Positions 1-17,169 of a stretch of DNA of 64,000 nt are shown piece by piece. Source of the DNA: Chthoniobacterales bacterium (GTDB taxonomy: Bacteria; Verrucomicrobiota; Verrucomicrobiia; Chthoniobacterales; Chthoniobacteraceae); contig JBBQZX010000001.1 of assembly GCA_038207335.1 (NCBI GenBank), positions 32,001 through 96,000 of the forward strand, written 5' to 3'. The notes under the pieces are model-generated. The model was not told where the DNA came from. It worked only from the letters and a program-made list of their open reading frames with translations, and did no database searches. How positions within the stretch are numbered: the stretch's first letter is position 1; each line of letters begins with the position of its first letter. Made by a program: the position numbers and the translations under genes.

Positions 1-3000
1 ATGGAGAAGCGTTCGAGGTTTGGTTAAAAAGCGACGTCGTGAGAAAAAGCGTCGTGATCCGATGCACGGCGAGATGCACGGCAAGGGCGGGTGGAGAGAG
101 CAAAATCTCCTGCGGAGTGACGACGAGTGTTCCGCCATTGAGAAGCGCTCCCCACATCTCGAAAGTGGCCGCGTCGAAGCAAACATTCGACGCAAACGCG
201 ACAACGTCATCGGGCTGAAAGTGGACGAAATCGCTGTTGACGACGAGCCTGCTGATGGCGCGATGCGGCACCACGACGCCTTTAGGGACGCCCGTGGAGC
301 CGGAGGTGAAGAGCACATAAGCAGGGCCGTCCGCAGCCGCCGAATCGGGCAGGTCGTCCGCATCTTCGATCGCATCGGGATCGAGCACCCAAGCGCATCC
401 GGCGCGCATCTGCGCGGCTCGCTCAGCCGGTTCAGCGGGATCGAGCGGGACGTAAGCAGCACCCGCTTTCACGATGCCGAGCACACTTTCGATGAACCGC
501 GCCGTGCGCTCCGCGCGCAGGCCGACGAAATGACCGGCGCGGACACCCCGAGCGCGAAGGTGGCGCGCGACACGGCTCGCGCGCCTGTCGAGTTCCGCGA
601 AGCTGATGTTCGCCGCGCCTTCGATCAGAGCGGTGGCGTCCGGTTTGCGCACGACCCACTTCTCGAATTGCGCGCCAATCGTCTCATTTGCCGGGAAATC
701 GCGCGCAGTGTCATTCCAATCCACGAGCATCCGGTGACGCTCCTCCTCGGAGAGCAGCGGCAGCGCCGAAATAGCGGCGGCGGGATCGACAGCGATCGCT
801 TCCAGCAAGTGCCGGAAATGCCCCAGCCAGCGCTCGATCGTTTTGCCATCGAAAAGGTCTGTGTTGAAATCGCAGCGCAGAAAAAGAGCGCCGTCCTTCT
901 CTGAGACATTGAGGAAAAGCTCGGCCAATGCGGTGTCGCGCAGCCCCGCGAACGGCTGCGAGTCCGTGATGAGTTCGACTTCGAGTTCGTGAAGGCTTTT
1001 GCGATAGGTGCCGATTTCGTAGTTGAAAAGGACCGAGAAAATCGGAGCGCGGCTCGGGTCCGAGCGAAGCCCGAGAAGGGGGATGAGATTTGCGAAAAAA
1101 TACCGTTGATGCTCGTGCGCTTCGAGCACGAGGCGGCGATTGCTCGCGAGCAAATCGGCGAACGTTGTGCCGCTCTCGAGGCGGCTCCTAAGCGCGACAG
1201 TGTTTGTCGTATTCGCGAAAAGCTCGCGTCCGCCGATCCGCTCCCGCACAGGATCGGAGAACGGCACTCCGACCACGACATCATCCTGTCCGGTGAGGCG
1301 GTGGAGCAGCGTTTGGAAAGCCGAAAGCAACGTGGTGAACATGGAGCCCCCGTGTCTCGCTCCCGATTTTCGCAGCGCATCGGCGAGGTCGGCGTCGAGC
1401 GTAAGAGATGCGCGACCTCCTCGATGCGTGAGGAGATTTGGGCGTGGACGATCCAGCGGAAGCTCAAGTGGTGGAACGCGGTCGGAAAACTGTGCACGCC
1501 AGAATCGCTCCGCTTCCCGCTGGCCATGTTGCAAAATCTCGCGAGCAAAGGAACTGAGTTGGATTGCCGGGCGCAACGTCCGGCCCTCGCCGCCGAAGAT
1601 CGAAAGCAGGTCGTCGAACAGTGCGACGTACGACGGGCCGTTGCCGAGGATGTGATGGAACGTGAGCAGTAGAACGTGCCGCTCCGACGCGAGTCGGAGG
1701 AGGCGCACATCCATGATCGGCGAATGCGCGAAGTCGAAGCGTATCGCGCGGACCTCCGCGATGGCCGATTCGAGCGTCGCGTCGGAGTGGCACTCGATCA
1801 CGGGCATTTCGATCGTGACCTGTGGATGGACGGTCTGCGTTTCCGACGCCGCGTCGATCGTCGTTCGCAGGGCTTCATGCCGGGCAACCACGGCTTCGAG
1901 AGCGGCGCGCAGTTTGGCGGCGTCGAGCGCTCCTCGAAACTCCAGCGCGGACGTTTCATTGTAAGCGCGGGAAGAGTCGGGGTGCGTCTCGGCGAGCAGG
2001 CAGAGTCCTCGCTGCGCGTCGGTGAGTGGAAAAGTCTCGGGGCATTCGGATGCTGTGGCTAAGCGCTTTCTCAGGCCATCGAGGGCAGGGAGGCTCGCCA
2101 TCACGGCATCCGGATCGATACCGAAATCGACGAGGCAACCCACCTCATCCACCCCTGCCGCGCGCAGCTTTTCCGCGAGCACCGCGCACGATTCCTCCGT
2201 GCCGATAAACGCTTTCTCGTGCGCATAGTCGGTCACCGCGCGGTCGAGCAAAAACTCCAGATCGTCCGCGTTCACATCCGCTTCGCCTCGCTTACTGGCG
2301 CTCTTCTTTTGCGAAATCTCGACGTGCGAGCGGAGATACTCGCGAAGAGGCATCCGCGCGAGTTCCCGCGCTTGCGCTTGGTCGCCGGTGACGAATGTGT
2401 GGAGCAGCATGGTCACATGTCCGCGGTCGTGCCCGGCCCGCGCCCGGGCGTCGCGGTAAATCGCGATCTTCCCCGCGACGTCCTCGACGCTTTGGTTTTG
2501 AAGTTGAGCGAGGATATTCAGCCCCAGCGTACCAGCCGCCTCATACGATTCGGATCGGACACACGTCAGCCAGACAGGCAGTTCGCGCTGCACTGGCATC
2601 GGGAAAAGTCGGACATCAATGGCATTGCCCGTGCCGCCGCGCGCGCTGATCGAATCGCCGCGCCAAAGCGTGCGAATGGTTTCCAGCGAGCGCGTGCATA
2701 TTTCGCGGCGCTGCTCGTATGCATCGGGCGCGAAAACGAAATCATTTGGATGCCAGCCGGACGCGATCGAAATGCCGACGCGGCCATTCGAGAGATTGTC
2801 CACGAGCGACCATTCCTCCGCGACTCGCACGGGATGATGCAGTGGCAGAACGACGCTGCCGGCACGCAGTTGGATGCGCGAAGTCTCGCGTGCCAGCGCC
2901 GCTGCGAGCACCGCGGGATTTGGAGAAAAGCCACCGATCGAGTGGAAATGCCGCTCTGGCAACCAGACCGCCACGAAACCGTTCGCATCGGCAAAACGAG

Positions 3001-6000
3001 TGCTCTCGATGATGAGGTCGTATTTATCGCCGCGATGCGCCGCTGGGTAGTTTCCAAAGAAATAGAGGCTGAATTGCAACTCCGCAGCCGCCTGCGGGCC
3101 CTGATAAACACAGCGTTCCGGTTCCGCATTCGATGTTCCACCTTCCCGCGCTTCGAGCGCCTCGTCATCGACACGCGCTCCCAAAAATCCCCCCGCCTCC
3201 ATCTCAGCCACACTTTCTGAAAACGCTCGGACCAGCGCTGACAAATCGGCCTCCGAGTGGGCCGTGGAAAGAAACAGCAGGCGATTGTCCCATGCGTGAA
3301 TTCCCTTTTCTCGGAGGTGGAAGAAAAAGAGCCCGCCGAACGCGAACTCTGGGTCGAACTTCACGATGAACATCGACCCAAACGACTCCACGCGGATCGG
3401 GCCGTCCGCGGGCAGCACACCTTTCAAATCCGAGACGAGCGCGCTCGTTCGTGCATTCAGCCGCTCCTGCAATGCGCCGCCTTCGTCTCGCAAATGGGAG
3501 AGCATCGCGTGCGATGCGGCCAGCGCGAGTGGATGCCGCACGTACGTCCCGGCGAAAAATGTGACGCCGACGTCCGGCCGCGAGTCGTCGCCGAAATTCC
3601 ACGCGCCGCCGTCGAGCGCATCCATGAATTGTGCGCGTCCGCAGAGCGCGCCGATCGGCATCCCGCCACCGATGATTTTGCCGTATGCGGCGAGGTCGGC
3701 ATGGACGCCAAACCAAGCCTGCGCGCCGCCCGGATGACAGCGGAAGCCGGTAATGACTTCGTCGAAAACGAGCACCACTCCCGATTCGCTGCAGATGCGG
3801 CGCAACTCGTGCAGGAAGTCGCGCGGCTGCAAATCGGGATGCCGGCTTTGCACCGGTTCTACGAAGATCGCGGCCAGGTTGTGGGCGTTTGCGCGGAGGA
3901 TTTCGAGCGACGCGGGAGCGCCGTATTCGACAGCCAAAACTTCGCGTGCGACGTGATCGGGAATGCCCGGCGCGATAGCCACGGTGCGGCGTTCGCCCCC
4001 GACTTTTTTTGCGCGGACGAGGAACTCGTCGTTGATCCCGTGGTAACCGCTGCATGTTGCCACGCGGTCGCGTCCGGTGACGGTTCGAGCGATGCGCGCG
4101 GCGGCAACGGTTGCCTCGGAACCCGTGTTGCAAAAGGCCGCGCGATCCATGCCACTGAATTCGCAAAGCATCCGGGCAACCTCGCCGGCGATTGGCGATT
4201 GCGGTCCAATCTCGATTCCTCGCGCGAGTTGAGCGCCGATTGCGGCGGTGATGAAATCCGGCGAGTGTCCGAGCAGATTCGTGCCGAAGCCCATCGTGAA
4301 ATCGACGTATTCGCGACCGTCCACATCCCACATTTTCGAGCCGGAGGAGCGCTCAACGACGATCGGATAGACGAGTTCCTTCCACAGAGGTCGAAAACCC
4401 GAAATGGACCGTGGATCGGCGAAATGCGGGCGATGCTCCTGGCTGAGCAGCTTGGATTTCGCAGTGAGTGCGGAGTATCGCGAAATGAGCGAGTCGAGAT
4501 GCTGCCGCTGGCGGGCGTTGAGCGTGTCGGAGGCGTCGCGGAGGATCGGGCGGAACGGGCCGTGATTTGCGGGCTCGCTGACAGGAGATGCTGGTGCAGA
4601 GGGCGTTGACAGTCGATCGGAGGCTTTTGAGCGAGTGCCGCTTTCGACATGCGCGGCGATGCGCTCGATCGTGGAGAGTTCTTCGAAAAGCTGGCGGAAT
4701 GCGACGGCGACTCCGAACGATTTCCGGAGCGCGAGCGCGAATTGCGTGAGGAAAAGTGAGTCGCAGCCGAGCTCCAGAAGTGTCGCGGACGGGTCCATCT
4801 TCTCGACCGGGATGCCGGACATTCCATGTAGCAATGCGCGCACATCCCCGAGCGACGGTGCAGCTTCGGGTGCCGCGATTTTGGGCGATACGGGACGCGG
4901 TGTGAATGCGAGTGCGGATGGAGCAGAAACGTCGCGGATGCCGGGTTCAATCCAGAATCGCTCCCGCTCGAACGGATAGGTCGGAAGCTGGACACGGCGT
5001 CGCTTTTCAGCACCGCGGTGGAGCCTCCAATCAATCGGAACACCCGCAAGCCACAGACGCCCGAGCGCTTGGAGCATCGCCGCTTGATCGTGCTCGCGGG
5101 TCGTGCCCAGCGAGGAGATGACTGTGCCTCCGCGCGACTGGCGAGCAAGCGGTGAGAGTGTGACGCCGGGGCCAACCTCGAGCAGGATGTGGCGCGTATC
5201 GACTTTGGAAACGGCGGCGGAAAAACGGACGGTTTCGCGAAGCTGACGCGACCAGTATTCGGGCTCGGTGAAATTTGCCCCGTTGCCCGTGAGGGTAGAA
5301 AACATCGGGATTCGCGGCGCATTGAGCCGCGTGTCGCGTGCGAGCTCGATGAAGGGCGCGAGCACGGGCTCCATCATGCGCGAGTGAAATGCGTGCGAGG
5401 TCGGAAGGTGGGCTGATGCGACCCCGCGGGCTTCCATTTCGCGGGCAAAGGTGGCGACGTTTTCGGTTGGGCCGGAGACTACGCAGAGGCGCGGGGAATT
5501 TACGGCGGCGAGTTCGATGTCTCTGTTGAGATGCGGCGTGAGCTCGGCTTGCGAGAGGCGTACGGCGAGCATCGAGCCGGCAGGAATTTCGCTCATTAGC
5601 CTGGCGCGCCCGGAGAGCAAGTGGAGGGCGTCCTTCAACGAAAACACGCCGGAGAGGCAGGCGGCAGTAAACTCGCCGACGCTGTGCCCAAGCATGGCGG
5701 CAGGCTGCACGCCCCACGATTGCCAGAGCCGCGCCATTGCATACTCCACGGCGAAAATCGCCGGCTGTGCGACCGCGGTGTCGGTCATTTCGCATGTGGT
5801 CGTCGCGGGCGAGTAGAGCGCAACGGTGAGGTCGAGTTGTGGCTTTAGGAGCGCGTCGCACTCGAGCAGCGCATCGCGGAAGACGGGCTCGCTTTCGAAG
5901 AGTTCGCGAGCCATTCCTGGGAATTGCGCGCCCTGGCCGGGGAACATGAATACGACGTCGCCCACGGATGTCTCGGCGACGGAGCTGAAGACGCGATGCG

Positions 6001-9000
6001 GGTCGCGTTTCCCGAGCGCCTCGGCGGCGTCAGCGAGGTCGTGTGCGACAACGATGCGGCGGTGCTGAAACTCGCGACGACCGATCTGAAGCGTGTGTGC
6101 GACGTCTGCGAGATCGAGACCCGGGTTTTCGCGAAAATGCCTCGCGAGGTTGATGGATGCTTGATCCAGAGCGGGTGCGGTTTTCGCGGAGAGGATGAGA
6201 AGTTGCGACCGGCGCGAGAGCGACGAAGGCTCGGAAAGTGGCGCTTCCTCGAGCACGGCATGGGCGTTCGTTCCGCCGATTCCGAATGAACTGACGCCAG
6301 CGCGACGCGGCTCGTTTCTCCGTGGCCATGCGGTGCGCGCGGCGTTCACGACGAATGGGCCATTCGCAAAATCGATCTGAGGATTTGGCGAGTGAAAATG
6401 GAGGCTCGGCGGGAGCAGTTCGCGGTCGAGTGCGAGTGCGGTTTTGATGAGTCCCGCGACGCCCGCGCCCGCGTCGAGGTGGCCGATGTTGGTCTTCACC
6501 GACCCGATGCGGCAGAACGATGCGGCGCTGAATGCACGCGTGAGTGCGGCGATTTCTATGGGATCACCAAGCGCTGTGCCCGTGCCATGCGCCTCGACGT
6601 AATCGATGGTGTCCGCGGTGATGCCCGCCGCCGCGTGAGCGCGTGAAATGACCTCGGCCTGGCCTTCGACGGAGGGCGCTGTGAAGCCGGCCTTCGTCGC
6701 GCCGTCGTTGTTGATCGCGGTCGCTTTGATGACGCTGAAAATGTGGTCTCCGTCGCGTTGCGCATCGCTCAGGCGCTTGAGCACCACGGCTGCGATGCCG
6801 CTCGCGGCGACGCAGCCGCGGGCATTTTCATCGAAGGCGCGGCAGTGACCATCGGGTGATGCGATACCGCCTTCGACATGCACGTATCCCGAGTGCAGCG
6901 GTGAGCGGATGCGGCCACCGCCGACGAGCGCCATGCCGATTTCGCCGGATCGCAGGCTTTGACAAGCGAGATGCAGTGCCACGAGCGAGGAGGAGCATGC
7001 AGTTTGCACGCCGATTGCCGGGCCGCGGAGGTCGAGCTTGTGGGCGATGCGAGTTGGGGCGAAGTCCTTCTCGTTGCCGAGTGTGAGGGCGTATTCCGCG
7101 AGGTGCGGCGCGATGTCGGGGCGAGTGGCGAGGTTGTTCTGGAGGTAGCTGTTGAGCGCGAGCCCGGTGAAGACGCCGATCGGCTCCGCGCTGCGTGATA
7201 CGTCCTGACCGGCGTGCTCAAAGGCTTCCCAAGCGCATTCGAGGAGGATGCGTTGCTGCGGGTCCATGAGTTCGGCTTCGCGCGGTGTGAAACCGAAGAA
7301 TGAGGCTGCAAACCGATCCGCGTCGTCGAGCGTGGCTCCAGCGTTAACGTATCCAGGCTCGGCGAGAACGGTGGACTCGACGCCGGATGCGCGAAGTTCG
7401 TCGGCGGTAAACGGGCGGATTGATTCGACGCCCGCGCAGAGATTCTCCCAAAATGCAGAGACATCGCGCGCGCCGGGAAGGTTGCCCGCCATACCGATGA
7501 TCGCAATGGGTTCATTGGCCACGCGCGCGGCGGGATCTCCAGTCGGTTTTTCGTACCCCAGGGTCGCCGCCAGGCGCCATGTTTCGCCGCAGAGAAAGTC
7601 GTCGCGGAGCACGCCGCGCCAGCCGCCCGCTGCATCGGGATCGATCATTCGATGCGCGTGAAAATGAGGATCGTCGGAAGCAGGCACGGCCTTGGAAGCC
7701 GTCGCGGAATCCGCGCGATATGGATCGAGCACGGCGGAGTCGAATGGGATGCCGAGCGCGCTGAAAATGGCTTCCATGCTTGATCGCGGGTCGGCAACGA
7801 GGTCGGAGAAACGAAGGAAACTCTGCCGCTCGGGAGGAATGGTCGCGAGAAAATCGGCGATATTTCGGTGAGCGATATTCCAGACGACTTCTCCCGCCTG
7901 TCGCGGCGTGAGATCGCCCGCAGACGGCAGATAGACGCGATCCATGCGCTGCTTCTCGAACGAACGAATCACCTCGTACGGGTGACGAGAGAGGTGGATG
8001 TAAAACGCGTTTTCGAAAAGCGCCTCGGCGTGCCGGAGCGCTCCGGGGTCGAGCGTGCAGGAGGGTGATTTCTCGACCAGTTCGCGTGGCTCGATCCACT
8101 CAAGCAGGCGGGCGTAAAATTCGCCGGAGCCGAGATTTTCAAGCTCGCACTGTTCGAGAATCTCGCTGGCCTGCCGGTCATCGCAGTTCTTGATCTCGGC
8201 AATCGCGCGTAGGATTCCGTCGCGAGAAAATGCCCCGGATTGAGCGAGCGTCTCGGTGCCGAGGAGGCGGAGCTCGGATGCGGTAAAGAGGCCGGGATGC
8301 CGGTGGAGCATCGCGCGGAGCAGGGTGGTGCCGGAGCGCGGAGGCGCGAGGATGAAAATGGCGCGACGATTTCGCGGTTCGCCGGCGTGGGAAGCAGGCT
8401 GGAATGTCGGCAGTGAGGCGCGCACCCGCTCGATCATTGAGGAAGTGACGCGCGACTCATGCGCCGAAGTCGCGGATGTGTCTTCGCCGAAAGCACGGGC
8501 GATGGCCGCCGGATAGTGCTTTTGGAGGTATCCCGCGAGGAGCGCAATGGTGGGCGCCTCAAACATCGCGACGACGAACACCGGCTCGCCGATCCTTTGC
8601 TGGAGCTGCTGGACGAGCGTCGCGGCGCGGAGTGAATCGCCGCCGATTTCAAAAAAGCGGTCGTCGATTCCGATGCGATCGATGTGAAGGGCGTCGCGCC
8701 ATTCGCTCGCGAGATAATGCTCGAGCGCGGTGCGCGGTGGGGTGAACGCGGTGGCGACCTCGGGGCGTTCGCGCGTCAGGGGAGGCAATGCGGCGCGGTC
8801 AATTTTGCCGTTCGGTGTGAGCGGGAATTCATCCATTCCAGCGAATACCGAGGGCATCATGAACGCGGGAAGCTGTGCAGCGACAAGCGCGCGCAGATCA
8901 TTGATCGACGCGCTTTTCGGAGAAAAATAAGCTACAATCTGTGACTCGCCGCGGACGACTACGGCCGCAGTGTGAACGGTCGAATGCGTCTGGAGGACGG

Positions 9001-10333
9001 TTTCAATCGCATCGAGCTCGATGCGGTAGCCGCGGATTTTAACCTGGCGATCGACGCGGCCGAGAAACTCGAAATTGCCGTCCGACAACAGGCGCGCGAG
9101 GTCGCCCGATTTGTAGAGACGCGCGCCGTCTGACTGCAAAATAAAGCGTTCGGCGGTCAAGGCGGGCTGGTTGAGATAGCCCTGAGCGACGCCGTCGCCG
9201 CCGATGTGAATCTCGCCGGGAGTGCCCACTGGAACAGGGTTGCCGGCCTCGTCGAGGAGGCAAAGTTGCGTGCGCGCGATTGGCTTTCCGATAGTGATCG
9301 CAGCGCCGGGAAGGAGCTGGCAGGCGGTGCTCCAAACGGTGGTCTCGGTGGGTCCGTATTCGTTGAAGAGGGCGGCTTGGGGGAGACGCTGCGCGTGCTC
9401 TCCGGGAAGCGACGACGCACAATTTTCGCCCGCGACGATAACTGTCTGTAGAGAGGCGAGAGTCCCCGGAGCGCGGAGCAAAAGAGTGTGTAGCGACGGG
9501 AGGCAAAGGAGGTGCGTGATGGCTCGGGAACCGATCAGCGCGGCGAGCGCAAAGGGGTCGCGCTCTTCCTCGGCGGCGGGGAGAACGAGCGTCCCGCCAG
9601 TGCAGAGCGTCCAGAAAATCCCAGCCACCGAGCTGTCGAAAGCGAACGACGAGACGAGGAGAAATCTCGCGGGCGGATTCGCGTAAAACTCGAGCCGGGC
9701 GCGGGTCGAGTGGGCGAGATTTGCGTGTGAGACGAGGACGCCTTTCGGCCGGCCGGTGGAGCCGGAGGTGTAGATGACGTATGCCGTTCGATCAAGGCTG
9801 GCAGGAGAAAGGACGGTGGCAGGAACGACGGTGGAGTAATCTTCATCGAGAACGATAGACTCGATACCGTCGGAGAATTCCGATTCGAACTCGCGTGACG
9901 TGAGGACGAATCGCGGACCCGAATCGGCGAGCATGAAGCTGCGCAAACCGGCGGGGTATGCGGGATCGACTGGGACGTAAGCGCAGTCCGCCTTCAGGAT
10001 CCCGAGCAAGCCGGCGATCGTCTCGGGCGTGCGATGCGCGAGGATGGCGACGTGCGAACCGGCTTCCGTGCCGCGCGCCCGCAGCAGATGGGCGATCGAA
10101 TCGGAGCGGCGTCCGAGCTGCCGATAGGTGAGGCTTTTCTCCCCGGCGATGATCGCGATGGAGTCGGGGCTCTCCTCCGCACGCGCGCGCACGACTTCAT
10201 GCACCGGAAGACCCGGTGGAAAGGGAAAGCTGGATGTCGATATCTTCGCGGACAAAACGCAGGAGTGGACCGCCTTTAGTTTTCGCGTTTTTTGATGCCA
10301 CGCAACGCCGCGATCGACCCCACTGCCCAGCAT
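1..10333 (-). CDS. Hybrid NRPS-PKS megasynthase, 3'-truncated by the window edge (A-PCP-ST-KS-AT-ACP-AMT-LLM-C-A...)
   Basis: Manual translation of the minus strand gives the same frame at every point checked from ATG 10333 (alternative TTG 10255; in-frame TAG at 10363 upstream) to position 2. Motifs: LTYRQL, NEYGPTE, NGKID (A1, ~10200-8800); GGDSL (PCP ~8640); IFILAPPRSGTTLLRAML (sulfotransferase ~8370-7580); VQTACSSS, HGTGT, KTNIGH (KS ~7520-6250); GHSVG, HAFH (AT ~5960-5050); LGCDSL (ACP ~4770); YGKIIGGGMPIG (aminotransferase ~4510-3230); FSLYFF, WLPERHFH (LLM ~3080-2065); HHILGNG (C ~2040-760); YVLFTSGSTGVPKG, FDAATFEMWGALLNGG (A2 ~690-1). Absence from the ORF track fits an ORF with no stop in the window. 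Confidence 0.93.
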   Translation of the reverse strand, partial: MLGSGVDRGVAWHQKTRKLKAVHSCVLSAKISTSSFPFPPGLPVHEVVRARAEESPDSIAIIAGEKSLTYRQLGRRSDSIAHLLRARGTEAGSHVAILAHRTPETIAGLLGILKADCAYVPVDPAYPAGLRSFMLADSGPRFVLTSREFESEFSDGIESIVLDEDYSTVVPATVLSPASLDRTAYVIYTSGSTGRPKGVLVSHANLAHSTRARLEFYANPPARFLLVSSFAFDSSVAGIFWTLCTGGTLVLPAAEEERDPFALAALIGSRAITHLLCLPSLHTLLLRAPGTLASLQTVIVAGENCASSLPGEHAQRLPQAALFNEYGPTETTVWSTACQLLPGAAITIGKPIARTQLCLLDEAGNPVPVGTPGEIHIGGDGVAQGYLNQPALTAERFILQSDGARLYKSGDLARLLSDGNFEFLGRVDRQVKIRGYRIELDAIETVLQTHSTVHTAAVVVRGESQIVAYFSPKSASINDLRALVAAQLPAFMMPSVFAGMDEFPLTPNGKIDRAALPPLTRERPEVATAFTPPRTALEHYLASEWRDALHIDRIGIDDRFFEIGGDSLRAATLVQQLQQRIGEPVFVVAMFEAPTIALLAGYLQKHYPAAIARAFGEDTSATSAHESRVTSSMIERVRASLPTFQPASHAGEPRNRRAIFILAPPRSGTTLLRAMLHRHPGLFTASELRLLGTETLAQSGAFSRDGILRAIAEIKNCDDRQASEILEQCELENLGSGEFYARLLEWIEPRELVEKSPSCTLDPGALRHAEALFENAFYIHLSRHPYEVIRSFEKQRMDRVYLPSAGDLTPRQAGEVVWNIAHRNIADFLATIPPERQSFLRFSDLVADPRSSMEAIFSALGIPFDSAVLDPYRADSATASKAVPASDDPHFHAHRMIDPDAAGGWRGVLRDDFLCGETWRLAATLGYEKPTGDPAARVANEPIAIIGMAGNLPGARDVSAFWENLCAGVESIRPFTADELRASGVESTVLAEPGYVNAGATLDDADRFAASFFGFTPREAELMDPQQRILLECAWEAFEHAGQDVSRSAEPIGVFTGLALNSYLQNNLATRPDIAPHLAEYALTLGNEKDFAPTRIAHKLDLRGPAIGVQTACSSSLVALHLACQSLRSGEIGMALVGGGRIRSPLHSGYVHVEGGIASPDGHCRAFDENARGCVAASGIAAVVLKRLSDAQRDGDHIFSVIKATAINNDGATKAGFTAPSVEGQAEVISRAHAAAGITADTIDYVEAHGTGTALGDPIEIAALTRAFSAASFCRIGSVKTNIGHLDAGAGVAGLIKTALALDRELLPPSLHFHSPNPQIDFANGPFVVNAARTAWPRRNEPRRAGVSSFGIGGTNAHAVLEEAPLSEPSSLSRRSQLLILSAKTAPALDQASINLARHFRENPGLDLADVAHTLQIGRREFQHRRIVVAHDLADAAEALGKRDPHRVFSSVAETSVGDVVFMFPGQGAQFPGMARELFESEPVFRDALLECDALLKPQLDLTVALYSPATTTCEMTDTAVAQPAIFAVEYAMARLWQSWGVQPAAMLGHSVGEFTAACLSGVFSLKDALHLLSGRARLMSEIPAGSMLAVRLSQAELTPHLNRDIELAAVNSPRLCVVSGPTENVATFAREMEARGVASAHLPTSHAFHSRMMEPVLAPFIELARDTRLNAPRIPMFSTLTGNGANFTEPEYWSRQLRETVRFSAAVSKVDTRHILLEVGPGVTLSPLARQSRGGTVISSLGTTREHDQAAMLQALGRLWLAGVPIDWRLHRGAEKRRRVQLPTYPFERERFWIEPGIRDVSAPSALAFTPRPVSPKIAAPEAAPSLGDVRALLHGMSGIPVEKMDPSATLLELGCDSLFLTQFALALRKSFGVAVAFRQLFEELSTIERIAAHVESGTRSKASDRLSTPSAPASPVSEPANHGPFRPILRDASDTLNARQRQHLDSLISRYSALTAKSKLLSQEHRPHFADPRSISGFRPLWKELVYPIVVERSSGSKMWDVDGREYVDFTMGFGTNLLGHSPDFITAAIGAQLARGIEIGPQSPIAGEVARMLCEFSGMDRAAFCNTGSEATVAAARIARTVTGRDRVATCSGYHGINDEFLVRAKKVGGERRTVAIAPGIPDHVAREVLAVEYGAPASLEILRANAHNLAAIFVEPVQSRHPDLQPRDFLHELRRICSESGVVLVFDEVITGFRCHPGGAQAWFGVHADLAAYGKIIGGGMPIGALCGRAQFMDALDGGAWNFGDDSRPDVGVTFFAGTYVRHPLALAASHAMLSHLRDEGGALQERLNARTSALVSDLKGVLPADGPIRVESFGSMFIVKFDPEFAFGGLFFFHLREKGIHAWDNRLLFLSTAHSEADLSALVRAFSESVAEMEAGGFLGARVDDEALEAREGGTSNAEPERCVYQGPQAAAELQFSLYFFGNYPAAHRGDKYDLIIESTRFADANGFVAVWLPERHFHSIGGFSPNPAVLAAALARETSRIQLRAGSVVLPLHHPVRVAEEWSLVDNLSNGRVGISIASGWHPNDFVFAPDAYEQRREICTRSLETIRTLWRGDSISARGGTGNAIDVRLFPMPVQRELPVWLTCVRSESYEAAGTLGLNILAQLQNQSVEDVAGKIAIYRDARARAGHDRGHVTMLLHTFVTGDQAQARELARMPLREYLRSHVEISQKKSASKRGEADVNADDLEFLLDRAVTDYAHEKAFIGTEESCAVLAEKLRAAGVDEVGCLVDFGIDPDAVMASLPALDGLRKRLATASECPETFPLTDAQRGLCLLAETHPDSSRAYNETSALEFRGALDAAKLRAALEAVVARHEALRTTIDAASETQTVHPQVTIEMPVIECHSDATLESAIAEVRAIRFDFAHSPIMDVRLLRLASERHVLLLTFHHILGNGPSYVALFDDLLSIFGGEGRTLRPAIQLSSFAREILQHGQREAERFWRAQFSDRVPPLELPLDRPRPNLLTHRGGRASLTLDADLADALRKSGARHGGSMFTTLLSAFQTLLHRLTGQDDVVVGVPFSDPVRERIGGRELFANTTNTVALRSRLESGTTFADLLASNRRLVLEAHEHQRYFFANLIPLLGLRSDPSRAPIFSVLFNYEIGTYRKSLHELEVELITDSQPFAGLRDTALAELFLNVSEKDGALFLRCDFNTDLFDGKTIERWLGHFRHLLEAIAVDPAAAISALPLLSEEERHRMLVDWNDTARDFPANETIGAQFEKWVVRKPDATALIEGAANISFAELDRRASRVARHLRARGVRAGHFVGLRAERTARFIESVLGIVKAGAAYVPLDPAEPAERAAQMRAGCAWVLDPDAIEDADDLPDSAAADGPAYVLFTSGSTGVPKGVVVPHRAISRLVVNSDFVHFQPDDVVAFASNVCFDAATFEMWGALLNGGTLVVTPQEILLSPPALAVHLAVHRITTLFLTTSLFNQTSNASP

Positions 10334-10482
10334 GATGTGAATGAAAGAGCAGCGGCGAGGCTAAAAAGGGAAACGCGGGTCATGATTTTTATTGGCGCAA
10401 AATGATGGTGCGCGGATGCTCGCGTGCGCTGCCAGTCGGCGGCGCATTACGATTCATGACGGCATTTTCGCAATCCCGCACT

Positions 10483-10498
10483 AGCAGCGCGTATGCCA
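10483..10498 (-). promoter_or_regulatory. Candidate sigma54 (-24/-12) promoter facing the NRPS-PKS
   Basis: Minus strand TGGCATACGCGCTGCT(A), GG-N10-GC spacing, intergenic, ~150 nt upstream of ATG 10333. Confidence 0.55.
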
Positions 10499-10526
10499 TC
10501 CGCCCGAGCGTGGCGGGTACTGGCGC

Positions 10527-11069
10527 ATGAAGCTGCGCGGCTATTCGAGCGCGGCGTTCGATCGCGGCGCGCCGCTCTGGCAGGAGGCGCTTTGGATCGC
10601 CGTGAAGGTGTTGTTTTTCATGAATCCGTGGCCGTGGCCGTCGGCGCTGCGAGTGGCGATGCTGCGGGCTTTCGGGGCGAGGATCGGCGAGCGCGTGGTG
10701 GTGCGCAGCCTCGTGAATATCAGCTTTCCATGGCGACTGACGGCTGGAGACGATGTGTGGATCGGCGAGGAGGCGATGCTGCTGACGCTCGCGCCGATCG
10801 TACTGGAGTCGGATGTGTGCGTGTCGCAGCGGGCGTTTCTGTGCACGGGGTCGCACCGGTTTCATGCTGAGAATTTCGATCTCGTGGCAAAGCCGATCAC
10901 AGTGCGCTCCGGATCGTGGATCGCGGCGCACGCGTTCATCGCGCCCGGGGTGGAAATCGGTGTGGGAAGCATGGTGTGCGCGGGGAGCGTGGTGATCGGG
11001 GATGTGCCGGCGGGCACGGTCGTGCGGGGGAATCCGGCGGTGGCTGTGCCGCGCCGCGCGGAGGTGTGA
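10527..11069 (+). CDS. wcaF: WcaF-like hexapeptide-repeat acetyltransferase
   Basis: LRAFGARIG, ISFPWRL, CTGSH, GSVV, GNPA left-handed beta-helix motifs. Confidence 0.85.
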   Translation: MKLRGYSSAAFDRGAPLWQEALWIAVKVLFFMNPWPWPSALRVAMLRAFGARIGERVVVRSLVNISFPWRLTAGDDVWIGEEAMLLTLAPIVLESDVCVSQRAFLCTGSHRFHAENFDLVAKPITVRSGSWIAAHAFIAPGVEIGVGSMVCAGSVVIGDVPAGTVVRGNPAVAVPRRAEV

Positions 11070-11086
11070 AGGTCGGCGTTCCGGCG

Positions 11087-12169
11087 ATGCGTGTCCTGTT
11101 TTTGAATCAGTTTTTCCCTCCTGATCCGGCCCCGACGGGCGTGCTTTTCCGCGAACTGGCGGATGATCTGGCGGCAGAGGGGCACGAGATCGAGTTCATC
11201 GCCTCGCGGCAGGAATATCGCGCTGGGCAGGGACAGCGCGGGCGGATGCGGCGAGAGTTGAAGGCGCTCGGCGCGATGCTGCTCGACGGGTTGCGGGCGC
11301 GGCGCGCGGATGTCGTGGTATCGGGAACTTCGCCGCCATGCCTGCTCGTCGTGGCGGCGATGGTCGCGCTGTGGCACCGGGCGCGTTCGGTGCATTGGGT
11401 CATGGACCTTTATCCTGAAATCGCGGTGGCGCTCGGCGAACTGCGCGATGGAATTTTGGCGCAGGCGATCGGGAAAATCATGGGCTGGGCGTATCGCCGA
11501 TGCGCGCATGTGGTGGCGCTAGATGCGGACATGGCGGCGCGGATTTCAAAATATGGCGTGGCCGCGAAGATCGTGCGCCCGTGGGTCTTCGCAAGCGTAA
11601 TGGCTCAGCGCGGGGCGGGGGAGCGAGGCGAACCGTGGACATGGATTTACTCAGGAAATCTCGGGCGTGCGCACGAGTGGGAGACGCTGCTGGCGGCGCA
11701 GGCGTTTCTGGAAAAGAGCGACGCGGGCGTGCGGCTGCTTTTTCAAGGCGGCGGACCTTCGTGGCCAGCGGCGCAGGCGCGGACGCAGGAACTCGGACTG
11801 CGAAATTGCGAGTGGCAGCCGTATGTGGCGGAAAGTGAATTGCGGGGCTCGCTGTTGCGCGCGGGTTGCTGTGCGGTGACACAGTTGCCCGCGACGCAAG
11901 GCATGTTGTGGCCGAGCAAACTGGGATTTTTGTTCACTCTCCCGCGACCGCTTTTGTGGATAGGGCCGGTGGATGGCGCGATCACCCAGGCACTGTGCGA
12001 GGTGCCTCACGCCGGGATTTTCGCGCCGGGACAGTCGGCTGAGGTCGCGCAGTGGCTGCTCGTTCAGCGAGAGCGCCGAGACGAGATTTCCGACGGCCTC
12101 GCCGCCGCGGCAGCACAGCGCGAGGTGGCGATGTCGAAAATGCGGGCGCTGGTGGTGAATGGGCCCTGA
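11087..12169 (+). CDS. Glycosyltransferase family 4 (WcaI-like)
   Basis: NQFFPPD, WVMDLYPEIA, YSGNLGRAH, PSK motifs; start ATG 11087 or GTG 11066 overlapping the wcaF stop. Confidence 0.85.
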   Translation: MRVLFLNQFFPPDPAPTGVLFRELADDLAAEGHEIEFIASRQEYRAGQGQRGRMRRELKALGAMLLDGLRARRADVVVSGTSPPCLLVVAAMVALWHRARSVHWVMDLYPEIAVALGELRDGILAQAIGKIMGWAYRRCAHVVALDADMAARISKYGVAAKIVRPWVFASVMAQRGAGERGEPWTWIYSGNLGRAHEWETLLAAQAFLEKSDAGVRLLFQGGGPSWPAAQARTQELGLRNCEWQPYVAESELRGSLLRAGCCAVTQLPATQGMLWPSKLGFLFTLPRPLLWIGPVDGAITQALCEVPHAGIFAPGQSAEVAQWLLVQRERRDEISDGLAAAAAQREVAMSKMRALVVNGP

Positions 12170-12200
12170 TGCCGAAGCCGGAAAACTGCCCTCTGCGCAG

Positions 12201-12216
12201 TGGCACCTCGGATGCT
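12201..12216 (+). promoter_or_regulatory. Candidate sigma54 promoter upstream of the wecA-like gene
   Basis: TGGCACCTCGGATGCT(A), GG-N10-GC, in the 12170-12306 intergenic gap; the downstream gene has a GGAGGAGG SD. Confidence 0.6.
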
Positions 12217-12306
12217 ATTGTCCGCGACCCGCATGTCCGCTGAACTCGATCAACTCGCATTTTCAACTGACGACCGCCCGGACGAGGCCGGTGGAGGAGG
12301 TGTGCG

Positions 12307-13662
12307 ATGATTTTTTCGGTCGGCTTTTTTCTGCTAGGGTTTCTCGTCGCATTTCTCACGACGCCGTGGGTCATTCGGCTTTCGCACACGGGCATCGGGC
12401 TCGACGATCCAAATCAGTCGCGCAAGTCGCACACGGCGCCGATCCCGCGGCTCGGTGGCGCGCCGATCATGCTCGCGATTTCGCTGGGGCAAATCCTCAT
12501 CCTCACGGTGGAGCCGCAGCACGCGTCGAAGTGGTTCCCGGTCCTGCTCGGCAGCCTGCTGATGTACGGGCTCGGACTGTGGGACGATCTGAAGCCGCTT
12601 GGCGCGCGGAAAAAGCTCGCTGGCCAAATCGCGACCGCGGTGATCGTTTATTGCATGGGGCTGAGCATCGATCGCGTCTCGTATCCCGGAGGCGCGTGGA
12701 GCGTGGAACTCGGCGCATGGAGCGCGCCGGTCACGATTTTCTGGCTCATCGCGGTTCCGAATATCGTGAATCTGATCGACGGCTTCGACGGCCTCGCGGG
12801 CGGGCTCGGACTTTTCATGTCCGTCACACTCGGAATCGTCGGCCTCTACAATGAGCAGCTCGCGGTCGCGTGGTACGCTTTCACGATGGCTGGCGCACTG
12901 CTCGGATTCCTCGTGTTCAATTTCCCGCCGGCGCGCATTTTTCTCGGAGACGGCGGCGCGTATCTCATCGGCTTCACGATTGCGGCGCTATCGCTCACGA
13001 GTTCGAACAAAGGCTCGGTCGCCGTCGTGCTCCTCGTCACGATCGTGGCACTCGGCGTGCCGATCCTCGACACGAGCTTCGCGCTGCTGCGGCGTGCGGT
13101 GCGCGGCTTTCCGCTTTTTCATGCGGATGGTGAGCACCTGCATCATCGACTGGAAAATCTCGGCTTTTCCAAAAGGCGCATCGTGCTGGGTATTTATGGC
13201 GTGGCGGTCGTCCTTTCGCTGCTCGCGCTGAGCATCGTCTGGACGCAGGCGCGCACTTTGCCGCTGGGGATTGCGTTCATTTTCCTGCTTGCGGTTTTGG
13301 TGCTGCGATACTTCCACCGGGTGCGGGATCTCGACGATATGTGGCGGAAGATGGGGCGCGTTTTCGGCCAGAGGCGCAGCGTGCAGTACGCGCTGCTGCA
13401 GGCGCGGCTGCTGGAGATGGAGGTGGAGCGGTGCAAAACGCGAGAGGAGTTTTGGCAGATTTTCGAGCAGACGCTGCGGCGGGTGGGCTTCGCGGAAAAT
13501 GCCAGCGGCGATGAGCACGTCGAACTGCATGTGAAATACAATGGAAGCACGCCGTGGACGCTGCACGCGCCTCGGGAACGCGCGACACGTCGCGAGTGGC
13601 AGCGGATTGCCGAGTGCTTTCGCTCGGCATATATCAAAGGACGCGCACGATGGGACGAGTGA
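12307..13662 (+). CDS. WecA/MraY-family undecaprenyl-phosphate GlcNAc-1-P transferase with C-terminal extension
   Basis: PRLGG, GLWDD, NLIDGFDGL, FNFPPARIFLGDGG, HLHHRL; many TM segments. Confidence 0.9.
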   Translation: MIFSVGFFLLGFLVAFLTTPWVIRLSHTGIGLDDPNQSRKSHTAPIPRLGGAPIMLAISLGQILILTVEPQHASKWFPVLLGSLLMYGLGLWDDLKPLGARKKLAGQIATAVIVYCMGLSIDRVSYPGGAWSVELGAWSAPVTIFWLIAVPNIVNLIDGFDGLAGGLGLFMSVTLGIVGLYNEQLAVAWYAFTMAGALLGFLVFNFPPARIFLGDGGAYLIGFTIAALSLTSSNKGSVAVVLLVTIVALGVPILDTSFALLRRAVRGFPLFHADGEHLHHRLENLGFSKRRIVLGIYGVAVVLSLLALSIVWTQARTLPLGIAFIFLLAVLVLRYFHRVRDLDDMWRKMGRVFGQRRSVQYALLQARLLEMEVERCKTREEFWQIFEQTLRRVGFAENASGDEHVELHVKYNGSTPWTLHAPRERATRREWQRIAECFRSAYIKGRARWDE

Positions 13663-16025
13663 GCCGGAGGAGCCGGGCGAAGGAGCCCGCGGCGCGCACG
13701 GAAACCAACTGGCAGAGAGTCGCTGCGCTCGTGATTTTCGGCGTGCTCGCGACTGGCGCGCCGATGGCATTTGGAGCGGTCGATCGTTTCACGCAGATCG
13801 TCCTCGTGGGCCTTCTCGGCATCGGCGTGCTCCTTCAGCCGCCCCAAGTTGCGCGGGTCGGCAGATGGATGAATTTCGCGCTTCTCGCGCTCCTTGCGCT
13901 GGTGGTGGTGAAGGAGTTCGGACCGGCGAAGTTTTTCGGCCACACGACCTGGCGAACGACGCTGGAGGAAAGTTACGGGCTCGAGCTGCCATGGACGCAT
14001 CACCCGGAGCCTGCGCGCGCGCTCGAGGCGCTGCTCACGGTCGCGGTGGCGGCAATTTGGCTTGTGTGGGTGCGCTCACTGGCGTCCGTGCGGGAGAATC
14101 GCGCGGCGCTCGCGTGGATGCTTTTCGGCGCGGGCACGCTGGTGGCGGCGGTGTCGTTTGCGGCGAAAGGGGGCGATCCGCGCGCAATCTGGGGGCTGCG
14201 CTACACGCCGGGCTGGCGTGGCTTTGGGCCATTCCCGAATCGCAATCACAGCGCCTGTTTTTTTGCGATGAGTGCGATCGTCGGCGCGGGTTGTGTGACT
14301 TGGGCGGGAATGCGGAGGAGATACGATTTGCTCACCGGCGGCATCCTGATGCTGGGTCTCGTGTTGAGCGGGCTTTTCGCCACGGAATCGCGCGGCGGCA
14401 TGGTTGCGCTGGGCTGCGGCGCGCTCGTGTTTGTGGGCTTCGTGCTGGCAAAGCTGCGCAGCCGGCGGGCATTCGGCGTGGCTCTCGCGGCGCTGTTGGT
14501 GGCGCTCGCGGTGGCGTTGGTTTTCGGCTCGAAATCGCTCGCGAGATTTTCCAACGGAGAGGGCGCGCATGTGTCGAATCAACTCCGCCGCGAAATCTGG
14601 CACGACGGATTCGCGATGTGGCGGGACGCTCCGCTTTTCGGTCACGGGCTGAGTTCGTTCGCGGAGATTTTTCCGATGTATGAAACGATGCAGCTCGACG
14701 ACCAAGTGGTGCTGCATCCCGAGAGCAGTTGGCTCCAGTGGCTCGATGAAATGGGCGCGGTTCCGCTGCTACTCGGCGCGGGGATTTGCCTCGCGTTTCT
14801 CCTCCCGCACGCGCGCGAAAATTTCCGCTCGCGAAACACCTTCTATCTCCGCGCCGGAGGCTTCGCAGCGACCGCGGCCCTACTCGCGCACTCCGTCATC
14901 GACGTGCCTGCTCATCGCTGGGGGACGGTGGCATTTGCGATTGCGGCCGTCGGTCTGGCGTGTCCCTGGAGATCGCGCGTTGCCGCATCGCAGCCGACGC
15001 GCCGGCCTGCGCTCCTGGCGCTCGGCATCGCTTTTTTTTGGTCGCTGCCGCTGCTCGCCGACTGGCCGGCGTGGTCGCCGCTTTCACTGAATCGTCTGCT
15101 CTCGAAGAACGAGCCATCGAACATTCTGAGGCTCGCGGAGATCGAGCGCGCGCTGCACTATTTCCCGCTAGATGCCGCGCTGCACGAGGCCGCTGGACTC
15201 GTGCTCCTGCGCTCCGGCGGCGCGCCCGCGAGCGAGTGGCAGCGGGAGTTTCAAATCGCCAGCCGACTCGTGCCGAGTTCATGGCGCACGCCTGCCGAGC
15301 AGGCTCGTGCCACCCGTAAAATCTCGCCGGCGTTTTCCCTCCATGCATGGCAACTCGCGATCGAGCGCGGCGCCCACCAACGCGAGGAATTGCTCGGTCT
15401 GGCGATGCGTGAGACGACGTCGAATCCCGCGTCCTCAGCCGCGTGGAGCAGTTACGTGGAGGCGCATCCCGACTTGCTGCTGGCCTACTCCCGCACCGCG
15501 CCGGAGGACCTTGGGCGTGATGCGTTCCATCGGTGGTGGGAGGGGCGGGCGCTCACTTCCGCAAAGATCGGCGATACGGAGGTGCGCGATTTTTATCCCG
15601 CGCTGCGTCGATGGGGGACGCCGCGGCAGCTTGCGCAGTGGATGGAGCACCGGCCGGATTTGCGGGCGCGGGACGCGCGAGTTTGGGCTTCGATCATCGT
15701 ACAGTGGGGCGATGAAGCTGGCGCTTGGGCGGTGCTCGCGGCGGCATTTCCCGAGCCGGAATTCCCCGCACCGCGCCAGTCGCTCCTCCGCGACGATCTC
15801 GAGCGACGCTGGAAATCCGACGCGCGAGATCTCGTGAACGCGCGCGTTTTGGCGCAATACCTCCTGACGAACGATGAGATTGCCGCTGGGAAAAAAATCA
15901 TCCTCGATGTCGCTCATCGGCGTGACGCGCCCGATTGGTTCGTCACGAAAGCGGCCCACATTCTCGCGGCAGACGGCCAACTCGCCGAGGCGATCGCGCT
16001 GCTGCTCCACGATCAGGCGAAGTGA
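13650..16025 (+). CDS. O-antigen ligase (Wzy_C)-family membrane protein with long helical C-terminal region
   Basis: GPFPNRNH, TESRGG, RxEIW...PLFGHGL, HPESSWLQ; start ATG 13650 overlaps the end of the upstream gene. Confidence 0.8.
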   Translation: MGRVSRRSRAKEPAARTETNWQRVAALVIFGVLATGAPMAFGAVDRFTQIVLVGLLGIGVLLQPPQVARVGRWMNFALLALLALVVVKEFGPAKFFGHTTWRTTLEESYGLELPWTHHPEPARALEALLTVAVAAIWLVWVRSLASVRENRAALAWMLFGAGTLVAAVSFAAKGGDPRAIWGLRYTPGWRGFGPFPNRNHSACFFAMSAIVGAGCVTWAGMRRRYDLLTGGILMLGLVLSGLFATESRGGMVALGCGALVFVGFVLAKLRSRRAFGVALAALLVALAVALVFGSKSLARFSNGEGAHVSNQLRREIWHDGFAMWRDAPLFGHGLSSFAEIFPMYETMQLDDQVVLHPESSWLQWLDEMGAVPLLLGAGICLAFLLPHARENFRSRNTFYLRAGGFAATAALLAHSVIDVPAHRWGTVAFAIAAVGLACPWRSRVAASQPTRRPALLALGIAFFWSLPLLADWPAWSPLSLNRLLSKNEPSNILRLAEIERALHYFPLDAALHEAAGLVLLRSGGAPASEWQREFQIASRLVPSSWRTPAEQARATRKISPAFSLHAWQLAIERGAHQREELLGLAMRETTSNPASSAAWSSYVEAHPDLLLAYSRTAPEDLGRDAFHRWWEGRALTSAKIGDTEVRDFYPALRRWGTPRQLAQWMEHRPDLRARDARVWASIIVQWGDEAGAWAVLAAAFPEPEFPAPRQSLLRDDLERRWKSDARDLVNARVLAQYLLTNDEIAAGKKIILDVAHRRDAPDWFVTKAAHILAADGQLAEAIALLLHDQAK

Positions 16026-16068
16026 ATTTCGGGATTTCCGAACGCCGGAATCGGGGTAAATAAGCCCC

Positions 16069-16578
16069 GTGGCGCGATCACTCATCCCAAAATCCCAGCC
16101 GCCCGGCACCCGCGCGGTCGATGCCGGCGTGCGTGAGCGCATTCACGCGTTCATCGCCGAGCGCGGGTTGAGGAAGACCACACAGCGCGACGCGATCATC
16201 GAGGCGGCATTCAGTACGACCGAGCACTACACGGCCGAGGATTTGCTCGCGAGGGCGAAAAAAATCGACCCGTCCGTGTCACGCGCGACCGTGTATCGCA
16301 CCCTGCCGCTGTTCGTGGAATGCGGCGTTCTGATGGAGATGGACTTCGGCGGTGACCACAAGTTCTACGATCCGAATTTCATAGAGCACCCAAATCACAA
16401 CCACCTGATTTGCACCGACTGTCACAAAATCGTGGAGTTCGACGACGTCCACATCGACACGCTGGAAACGTGCATCAGCAAACGTCTCGGCTTTTCTCCC
16501 GAGAAAAAAAGCGTCCGCATCGAGGCAAGTTGCGACGAGCTGAAGATGAAGGGTGCGTGCGGGAAGATGAAGGCTTGA
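16069..16578 (+). CDS. Fur-family transcriptional regulator
   Basis: HYTAEDL, VSRATVYRTL, HNHLICTDC. Confidence 0.92.
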   Translation: MARSLIPKSQPPGTRAVDAGVRERIHAFIAERGLRKTTQRDAIIEAAFSTTEHYTAEDLLARAKKIDPSVSRATVYRTLPLFVECGVLMEMDFGGDHKFYDPNFIEHPNHNHLICTDCHKIVEFDDVHIDTLETCISKRLGFSPEKKSVRIEASCDELKMKGACGKMKA

Positions 16579-16634
16579 GGGCGGCTTGGCTCTGCGTGGC
16601 GAGTGCCCGTGCGACCGGCCGGCCGGTTTGACTT

Positions 16635-17015: not shown

Positions 17016-17169
17016 CCGGACGGCGGTGTGCCCTCGTGCTTTTGCGGCACGGCAGGGCGCGGGTCGTTTCTAAAAATCACGCGCGCATCTTCGCGCCGCG
17101 TGCCACTTCGCCGAGCGCCGTCGCGCTTCGCGTTCATCCACACGTCCCCGCTATTCGCATCTCACTTCC

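Follow-up and report, generated by a model that had tools for sequence, protein, structure and literature searches.

The window analysed here, a stretch of 64,000 nucleotides (contig C1, positions 32001-96000, of the Chthoniobacterales genome G000, which is 5.17 Mb in 53 contigs and 94.7% complete), carries at its left edge an intact, real and uncharacterised gene for a hybrid of non-ribosomal peptide synthetase (NRPS) and polyketide synthase (PKS), called the megasynthase below. The best overall explanation, to which we give a probability of about 60%, is that a histidine-primed assembly line with a built-in sulfotransferase (ST) makes a sulfonated amino-hydroxy-acyl-valine, and that this product most likely leaves the cell together with a surface glycan or becomes linked to one. 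Every domain comes from a known family; what is new is the predicted histidine starter, the in-line CurM-type ST before the ketosynthase, and the glycan-operon setting.

The megasynthase gene and the residues it is predicted to load

A sequence-only reading of the window had placed ten assembly-line domains, in a stated order, in one minus-strand frame, and this was confirmed by the open reading frame (ORF) listing and by Pfam. With open ends allowed, the listing gives a single ORF (2..10333, minus strand, 3444 aa) that is stop-free up to the window edge; the gene is absent from default ORF lists because it is open at that edge. The frame extends to C1:30088, 1912 bases left of window position 1, and no in-frame stop or frameshift divides the domains anywhere in the whole 4081-aa frame. 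This 1.9 kb beyond the window adds the remainder of the second adenylation domain (A2), a third PP-binding domain and a thioesterase (TE) domain at residues 3817-4069. The full order, on one polypeptide of 4081 residues, is A1-PCP1-ST-KS-AT-ACP-AMT-LLM-C-A2-PCP2-TE, where A is an adenylation domain, PCP a peptidyl carrier protein, KS a ketosynthase, AT an acyltransferase, ACP an acyl carrier protein, AMT a class-III aminotransferase, LLM a luciferase-like flavin monooxygenase and C a condensation domain. The Pfam E-values range from 1e-24 to 1e-126, far beyond chance (AMP-binding scores 421 bits for both A domains together). The catalytic motifs are complete, including the three carrier-protein serine motifs, the lysine motif of the aminotransferase and those listed in Table 1; from its motifs we take the AT to be malonyl-type. 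By the Pfam order, ketoreductase (KR), dehydratase and enoylreductase domains are not present, and every unassigned stretch is too short for a reductive domain.

The ten specificity residues of the A domains were taken from a HMMER alignment to the LgrA structure and a MAFFT alignment of 102 A domains, using what we take to be their anchor positions. The choice of columns is validated by a control, as the same columns give DVWHLSLVDK and DFWNIGMVHK in other A domains, which are the Ser and Thr codes published in PMC12283262. For A1 the code is DSALIAEVWK, an exact match to a code listed in that paper as histidine-activating and found where the residue ends up β-hydroxylated (PMC12283262); from this match, A1 would activate L-histidine. 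The A2 code, DAFFVGGTFK, agrees with the printed Val code of the same source at eight of ten positions and is, on that comparison, valine-like; it is also the code of the last A domain before the TE in four relatives (G091, G092, G010 and G128). The earlier proposal that the loader is an amino-acid A domain, and not a fatty acyl-AMP ligase (FAAL) with its ACP, is borne out by Asp at the first code position together with the histidine code.

The sulfotransferase domain and its possible acceptor

Residues 653-931 match the ST of CurM (PDB 4gbm, 9.4e-54) and that of olefin synthase (Ols; 4gox, 2.1e-49), and protein-tyrosine sulfotransferases match them at ~1e-7 only. By these matches the domain is a CurM/Ols homologue, with the same loops that we take to bind the sulfo donor 3'-phosphoadenosine 5'-phosphosulfate (PAPS), and it too stands in an assembly line directly behind a carrier domain. 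The CurM/Ols domain, however, follows KR-ACP and sulfonates a β-hydroxyacyl chain, after which the TE decarboxylates it and eliminates sulfate (PMC11730487), whereas the megasynthase ST comes after A(His)-PCP and ahead of the KS, in a protein that has no KR. The embedded sulfotransferase of the sequence-only reading thus stands, but its sulfonated product needs qualifying: with an ST of the 'activating' kind known from CurM, the sulfate may be a leaving group and not a final decoration.

A search limited to proteins of 2244-7142 residues, in which domains were parsed using the window's own domains as queries, found 103 ST-carrying proteins. Of these, 61 begin A-T-ST-KS (T, carrier domain), most commonly as A-T-ST-KS-AT-T-AMT-C-A-T-TE; the rest are chiefly NRPSs with C-A-T-ST-C or C-A-T-ST-TE modules, along with a few PKS ends of the form ACP-ST(-TE). 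The AMT-LLM pair is more widespread still, being matched at E <= 1e-50 by at least 2050 of the 2303 large proteins scored. The architecture, called unusual in the sequence-only reading, is therefore not unique. Among the 61 loaders before a KS the code DVL[LM]NSLVNK occurs 27 times, DGLLSAQVGK-like codes 19 times, the His code 11 times (once as DSALVAEVWK), a Thr code twice and others twice; the 11 His-code proteins are apparently all from Chthoniobacteraceae. A FastTree phylogeny of 110 ST domains unites all loader-ST-KS domains in a group with 62 members (local support 95), an uncharacterised clade, within which the 11 His-loader domains form one clade (support 100). For the ST region, the nearest DNA relatives with a name are Chthoniobacteraceae metagenome-assembled genomes (53-54% identity), and the named homologues of the AMT-LLM part are mostly from Chthoniobacteraceae or Chthoniobacter, so that G000 most likely belongs to this family of the phylum Verrucomicrobiota. 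In the literature searched, which excluded subscription journals, MIBiG and antiSMASH, we found no description of the A-PCP-ST loader, the full architecture or its product, in keeping with the earlier remark that no characterised pathway shares the architecture. Nor did that literature yield a description of the NRPS-internal A-T-ST module type or a mention of DVLLNSLVNK, DGLLSAQVGK and related loader codes.

Nine columns are invariant in all 110 aligned ST domains and all are retained in the window ST, R666, G668, E687, K755, R783 and S791 among them. The conserved residues listed for it further include L671, L676, L766, F773, P785, E815, Y872 and D888, and the roles assigned here, in PAPS-binding loops and for the conserved Glu, are those we presume for the family. 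The residue two past this Glu follows context: PKS-type domains have His, those behind Ser/Thr modules Glu, Bacteroidota-type loaders Gln or Lys, and the His clade Arg. The window ST deviates at six positions with a conservation of 90% or more among the 110 domains, including Tyr to Cys at residue 759 (Tyr in 107 of 110), and three of the departures, D754E, Y759C and C857F, are absent from the rest of its own clade; its terminal branch, 0.49, is the longest in the subclade. These departures weigh against a working ST and give some substance to a very unlikely alternative, in which the domain in G000 is a relic or has a structural role only and the product lacks a sulfo group. Against it, the window ST retains its PAPS-loop residues, Glu687, Lys755 and the Arg783/Ser791 pair. 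Relative to the same-genus orthologue in G005 (63% identity) the ST has a dN/dS of 0.23, not above the range of A1 (0.29), C (0.20) and A2 (0.23), although dS near 1 approaches saturation and makes these ratios rough. The genome also encodes an adenosine 5'-phosphosulfate (APS) kinase, so PAPS can be made.

The ST seems to work on the residue held by the carrier directly upstream, normally on a β-hydroxyl, because in NRPS-internal A-T-ST modules the A domain ahead of it mostly has a code for Ser or Thr, in 28 cases out of 38 (Thr-type 15, Ser-type 13, the remaining ten mixed). Histidine lacks a hydroxyl. Since CurM-type STs and their NRPS-internal relatives point to β-hydroxyl acceptors, this mismatch counts against the overall explanation. 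The two enzyme families known to hydroxylate carrier-bound histidine are of the TauD type and P450; neither was found in the 94.7%-complete genome, and the cluster genes scanned contain no oxygenase except the LLM domain. Two of the 11 His-loader relatives (P0013 and P0019) retain the ST without an LLM domain, so the ST seems independent of the C-2 hydroxyl. A free α-amine, on the other hand, is common to all loader modules, and SulN is described as N-sulfonating a carrier-bound amine (PMC11298585). A free γ-amine on a 3-oxoacyl thioester would, moreover, tend to self-cyclise. For these three reasons we lean, tentatively and at odds well short of even, to the α-amine of the starter as the acceptor, which would give a sulfamate.

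Alternatively, the ST may activate a hydroxyl as in CurM/Ols, the sulfate then departing to leave an aziridine, another ring or an elimination product. The hydroxyl would be either a β-hydroxyl placed on histidine by an unrecognised hydroxylase or the monooxygenase-made C-2 hydroxyl adjoining the C-3 amine. We consider this course unlikely, although the close homology to CurM/Ols favours it, the Ols ST being reported to create a leaving group (PMC11730487), as do the NRPS-internal relatives, which come after Ser/Thr modules and in some cases stand immediately ahead of a TE, and the reported occurrence of the A1 code in modules whose residue becomes β-hydroxylated. The missing TauD and P450 enzymes, the scanned cluster with its LLM as the sole oxygenase, and the two relatives that keep the ST without an LLM all argue the other way, and here a KS, not a TE, comes next after the ST.

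Another ST of an NRPS initiation part is that of the Planktothrix cyanopeptolin synthetase Oci, which likewise modifies the N-terminal unit. There, however, the starter is glyceric acid (GA), which has a hydroxyl and enters through a GA loading domain, and a block of PKS, aminotransferase and monooxygenase is lacking (PMC2533009).

The survey also brought up CurM-type STs built into pure NRPSs as C-A-T-ST-C or C-A-T-ST-TE (for example P0007, P0006 and P0051, among P0003-P0104), from sources that include Thermoanaerobaculia, an Ectothiorhodospiraceae bacterium and Alteromonas. This pattern suggests, from codes and domain order, on-line O-sulfonation of Ser or Thr, for dehydration or, before a TE, for decarboxylative elimination. 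On an uncultured Verrucomicrobiae contig (L010:1607-11803, plus strand) a separate A-PCP protein is followed by a KS-AMT-LLM-C-A-PCP-ST-TE protein and then by three methyltransferase genes; its ST-TE end on an NRPS module is CurM-like. A Prochloron match (L009) was rejected as an assembly-line ST, being a stand-alone 431-aa ST beside a hydrolase.

The predicted amino-hydroxy acyl core and chain release

The core order KS-AT-ACP-AMT-LLM-C-A equals the block KS-AT-ACP-AmT-Ox-C-A(Val) of PuwE, from the puwainaphycin pathway of Cylindrospermum alatosporum. PuwE is described as a single polypeptide with one non-reducing PKS module without tailoring domains, followed by an aminotransferase, a flavin monooxygenase and one NRPS module predicted for Val (PMC4219810). 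The assignment of such a block to 3-amino-2-hydroxy acyl units, made for the window from sequence alone with microginin and puwainaphycin pathways as models, matches the published proposal for PuwE, which is itself bioinformatic (PMC4219810). PuwE takes a FAAL-activated, PKS-extended fatty acyl chain and hands its product to further NRPSs, whereas the megasynthase, compared with it by description and not by sequence, has an amino-acid starter with a His code loaded in cis, an inserted ST and a TE at its end.

Behind the LLM, ten of the 11 His-clade proteins have a C domain with HHxxxNG. Among 111 further AMT-LLM proteins, at least 62 have NG at the end of their sole HHxxx?G match, and the C domains directly behind an aminotransferase (in G010, G128 and G041) keep the usual HHxxxDG. 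The TE nucleophile is a Cys in G-Y-C-N-G, and the best PDB match, the TE of AB3403, aligns a Cys there too.

An ST that acts on a carrier-bound aminoacyl group to give a sulfamate, and a TE in which Cys is followed by Asn, are both found in sulfazecin biosynthesis (PMC11298585). There, however, SulN works in trans, the terminal residue of SulM is 2,3-diaminopropionate and the TE forms a β-lactam. The megasynthase has its ST in line, its TE motif is Tyr-Cys-Asn and not Gln-Cys-Asn, and its last A domain is Val-like and not of the 2,3-diaminopropionate type. The TE of SulM is not among the 30 PDB sequence matches of the megasynthase TE at E up to 0.01. A monobactam (SulM-like) reading was rejected on the Val-like last A domain and a TE without detectable sequence match to that of SulM.

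These comparisons are consistent with the following course. A1 would activate L-histidine and load PCP1, and the CurM-family ST would sulfonate the PCP1-bound starter with PAPS, the α-amine being the acceptor to which we lean. The KS and AT would extend the chain by malonate, and with no reductive domain the 3-oxo group would remain. By analogy with PuwE, the aminotransferase would turn this 3-oxo group into a 3-amino group and the flavin monooxygenase would hydroxylate C-2. The C domain and A2 would then add a valine-like residue, and the Cys-nucleophile TE would release or transfer the product. The backbone predicted in this way is 3,4-diamino-2-hydroxy-5-(imidazol-4-yl)pentanoyl-Val; a sulfo group would be attached to it, in the final product or at an earlier stage only.

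The glycan operon and the proposed role of the product

The megasynthase is the first gene of a tight operon in which gaps or overlaps between successive genes are at most 31 bases. It is followed on the same strand by an Sfp/HetI-like phosphopantetheinyl transferase (PPTase), an ABC-2 (Wzm) permease (ABC2_membrane, 81.4 bits), a 311-aa protein (P0105), an ABC ATPase with Wzt_C (ABC_tran plus Wzt_C at 37.2 bits, cut-off 30.4) and a family 2 glycosyltransferase (GT2), with GT1, GT2 and GT4 genes farther downstream as far as C1:13101. The 311-aa protein has no Pfam or NCBIfam match; when it was modelled with six orthologues (mean predicted local distance difference test score 76.7), the structural matches were LARGE1, glycogenin, XXYLT1 and WbbM, and on this predicted fold it is a GT8-like GT-A enzyme. 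The divergent upstream side holds a weak hexapeptide-transferase ORF, a WcaI-like GT4, two unassigned ORFs, an 823-aa Wzy_C protein and a Fur-family regulator. The Wzm, the Wzt with Wzt_C, the glycosyltransferases and the Wzy_C-family protein around the megasynthase resemble ABC-transporter-dependent O-polysaccharide systems, although no such system is known to use an NRPS-PKS product, and none came to light in the literature searched. In the Roseobacter group, a conserved orphan cluster of NRPS, PKS, glycosyltransferase and PPTase genes was described in 28 of 57 genomes, its product being unknown; an ST, an aminotransferase-monooxygenase pair and Wzm/Wzt are not reported for it in the accessible part of that paper (PMC4337385).

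The pairing is conserved in the family. By tblastn, the same neighbours surround the orthologous megasynthase in G005, of the same genus, and in G091 and G092, of another genus; in G090 the upstream neighbours were found and the contig ends before the downstream ones. Among 151 family genomes, strong ST matches (E < 1e-50) occur in 16, G000 counted, nine of them at E < 1e-100. The gene for the 311-aa protein is present in 94, at times in two to four tandem copies (G052, G055, G071), and at the loci inspected it is always near Wzm/Wzt. A KS at E <= 1e-60 is found in 89 of the 151. In at least 33 genomes the KS and the gene for the 311-aa protein share a contig and are no more than 21 kb apart, a lower bound obtained by comparing two place tables by hand, and elsewhere they are on different, often short, contigs. 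In three ST-less genomes that were inspected (G010, G128 and G041), these PPTase-Wzm-Wzt-GT genes recur immediately behind a related megasynthase whose front end differs, and in G084 and G085 the ST is placed after a Ser-coded second module instead. The TE nucleophile is Cys throughout the clusters compared. Since the pairing of KS and 311-aa gene, the ST-less syntenic megasynthases, the last A code DAFFVGGTFK and the Cys-type TE recur, the conserved unit is, by these comparisons, a β-amino-acid-making PKS-NRPS ending in Val and a Cys-TE, together with PPTase, Wzm/Wzt and glycosyltransferases, and its loader is variable.

This operon structure and its persistence across the family suggest that the product travels with the glycan machinery; probably it is carried out of the cell along with a surface glycan or is joined to one, and is not simply a free protease inhibitor. 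It may be a glycosylated small molecule, a glycan substituent or an end cap read by Wzt. The last of these, in which the Cys TE would transfer the sulfonated histidine-derived unit to a lipid-linked glycan as a non-reducing-end cap recognised by the C-terminal domain of Wzt, is a rather improbable form of the proposal. If true, it would mean an O-antigen-type polymer ended by an NRPS-PKS product, with the variable loaders of Chthoniobacteraceae acting as a 'serotype' switch.

Since the megasynthase heads a conserved operon for Wzm/Wzt glycan export and glycosyltransferases, the free bestatin/amastatin-like inhibitor that had been suggested for the window is but one reading among several. It would be a soluble sulfated dipeptide, hydrolysed off by the TE and exported by the ABC-2 transporter, the glycan genes being mere neighbours; it might inhibit aminopeptidases or, given the imidazole, the two amines and the neighbouring Fur gene, chelate metal. 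The product would fit the pharmacophore of bestatin-type inhibitors, a TE is present, a Fur-family gene is conserved nearby, and ABC-2 exporters are frequent in natural-product clusters. The logic of 3-amino-2-hydroxy-acyl plus Val, moreover, is that proposed for PuwE. We hold a free small molecule to be a serious rival but the less likely reading, as the Wzt ATPase bears a glycan-binding Wzt_C domain, the megasynthase shares its operon with Wzm, the GT8-like enzyme, Wzt and a GT2, and differently loaded megasynthases retain the same neighbours in at least 33 genomes.

Further points count against a glycan-linked, sulfonated amino-hydroxy-acyl-valine. The sites at which the aminotransferase and monooxygenase would act rest on analogy with a pathway that is only predicted itself, and no chemistry exists for any member of the megasynthase family. 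Ordinary natural-product clusters often have ABC-2 exporters, simple hydrolysis of the product by the TE is conceivable, and a neighbourhood conserved inside one family can reflect common descent and not function. An initiating phosphoglycosyltransferase, a chain-terminating (capping) enzyme and an enzyme joining peptide to glycan were not recognised among the genes at C1:13101-60834, the rest of the genome not having been searched.

Table 1. Features of the megasynthase locus. Coordinates are window positions unless prefixed C1; residue numbers are those of the megasynthase.
Feature	Position	Strand	Basis and remarks
Hybrid NRPS-PKS gene, residues 1-3444 of 4081	1..10333	-	ORF and Pfam; continues to C1:30088
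A1 adenylation domain, residues 49-510	8804..10189	-	Pfam (AMP-binding 49-387, then AMP-binding_C); code DSALIAEVWK, published His code
PCP1, residues 540-603	8525..8716	-	Pfam (PP-binding); GGDSL at residue 564
CurM/Ols-type ST domain, residues 653-931	7541..8377	-	PDB matches; Pfam Sulfotransfer_3 659-865 (87.7 bits); PPRSGTT loop at 664; E687 within SELRLL motif
KS, residues 941-1314	6392..7513	-	Pfam (ketoacyl-synt N and C); Cys/His/His present
AT, residues 1461-1727	5153..5953	-	Pfam (Acyl_transf_1); GHSVGE and HAFH
ACP, about residues 1840-1920	4574..4816	-	Domain search (PP-binding in Pfam); GCDSL at 1856
Class-III aminotransferase domain, residues 1989-2345	3299..4369	-	Pfam (Aminotran_3)
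LLM domain, residues 2430-2729	2147..3046	-	Pfam (Bac_luciferase)
Condensation domain, residues 2767-3202	728..2035	-	Pfam (Condensation); HHILGNG replaces HHxxxDG
Variant C-domain motif HHxxxNG	1637-1657	-	Motif comparison
N-terminal part of A2	1..676	-	Pfam (beginning of second AMP-binding); code DAFFVGGTFK, Val-like
Remaining A2, PCP2 and Cys-type TE (GYCNG)	C1:30091-32000, outside window	-	Pfam
311-aa protein (P0105)	C1:27621-28556, outside window	-	GT8-like predicted fold
Divergent intergenic (promoter) region between megasynthase and plus-strand glycan genes	10334..10526 (193 bp)	.	No Rfam match
Probable hexapeptide-repeat acyltransferase	10527..11069	+	Weak match, E 1.2e-4, below Pfam cut-off
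GT4 / WcaI-like glycosyltransferase	10916..12169	+	Pfam; kept beside megasynthase in G005, G090, G091, G092
823-aa membrane protein with Wzy_C (O-antigen ligase/polymerase) domain	13554..16025	+	Pfam; synteny conserved
Fur-family regulator	16069..16578	+	Pfam; synteny with cluster conserved in four relatives

Around the divergent region, window 9800-18500 has no Rfam match at E up to 0.1. For the GT4 gene the annotated start is probably too early, the true start lying near 11078, because relatives align only from about residue 54. A 180-aa minus-strand ORF (10389-10931), first taken as a conserved upstream gene, was rejected: it is rich in Arg, His and Pro, the weak hexapeptide-transferase match lies on the opposite strand, and it is probably an artefact of that strand. 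The glycan genes are flanked by the Fur-family regulator and an AcrB-family resistance-nodulation-division pump (972 bits; window 18240-21644, plus strand). Elsewhere in the genome, a second assembly-line locus (G000:C25:13826-22812) has a 2620-aa ORF whose KS is 44% identical to that of the megasynthase and, at a distance of about 7 kb, a 470-aa ORF that carries a condensation domain; similar ORFs of 2500-2600 aa recur in many of the 151 family genomes.

With the predicted product, the few 3-amino-2-hydroxy acid blocks, those of bestatin, amastatin, microginins and puwainaphycins, would gain a histidine-derived member, a vicinal diamino-hydroxy acid, from a phylum in which hardly any natural product has been characterised. 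The megasynthase also offers a test case for the role of CurM-type STs inside NRPS modules, as no characterised member was found among the at least 103 large proteins. With its fixed position at the head of a Wzm/Wzt glycan-export operon across the family, it further lends itself to testing whether bacterial surface glycans are decorated with assembly-line products.

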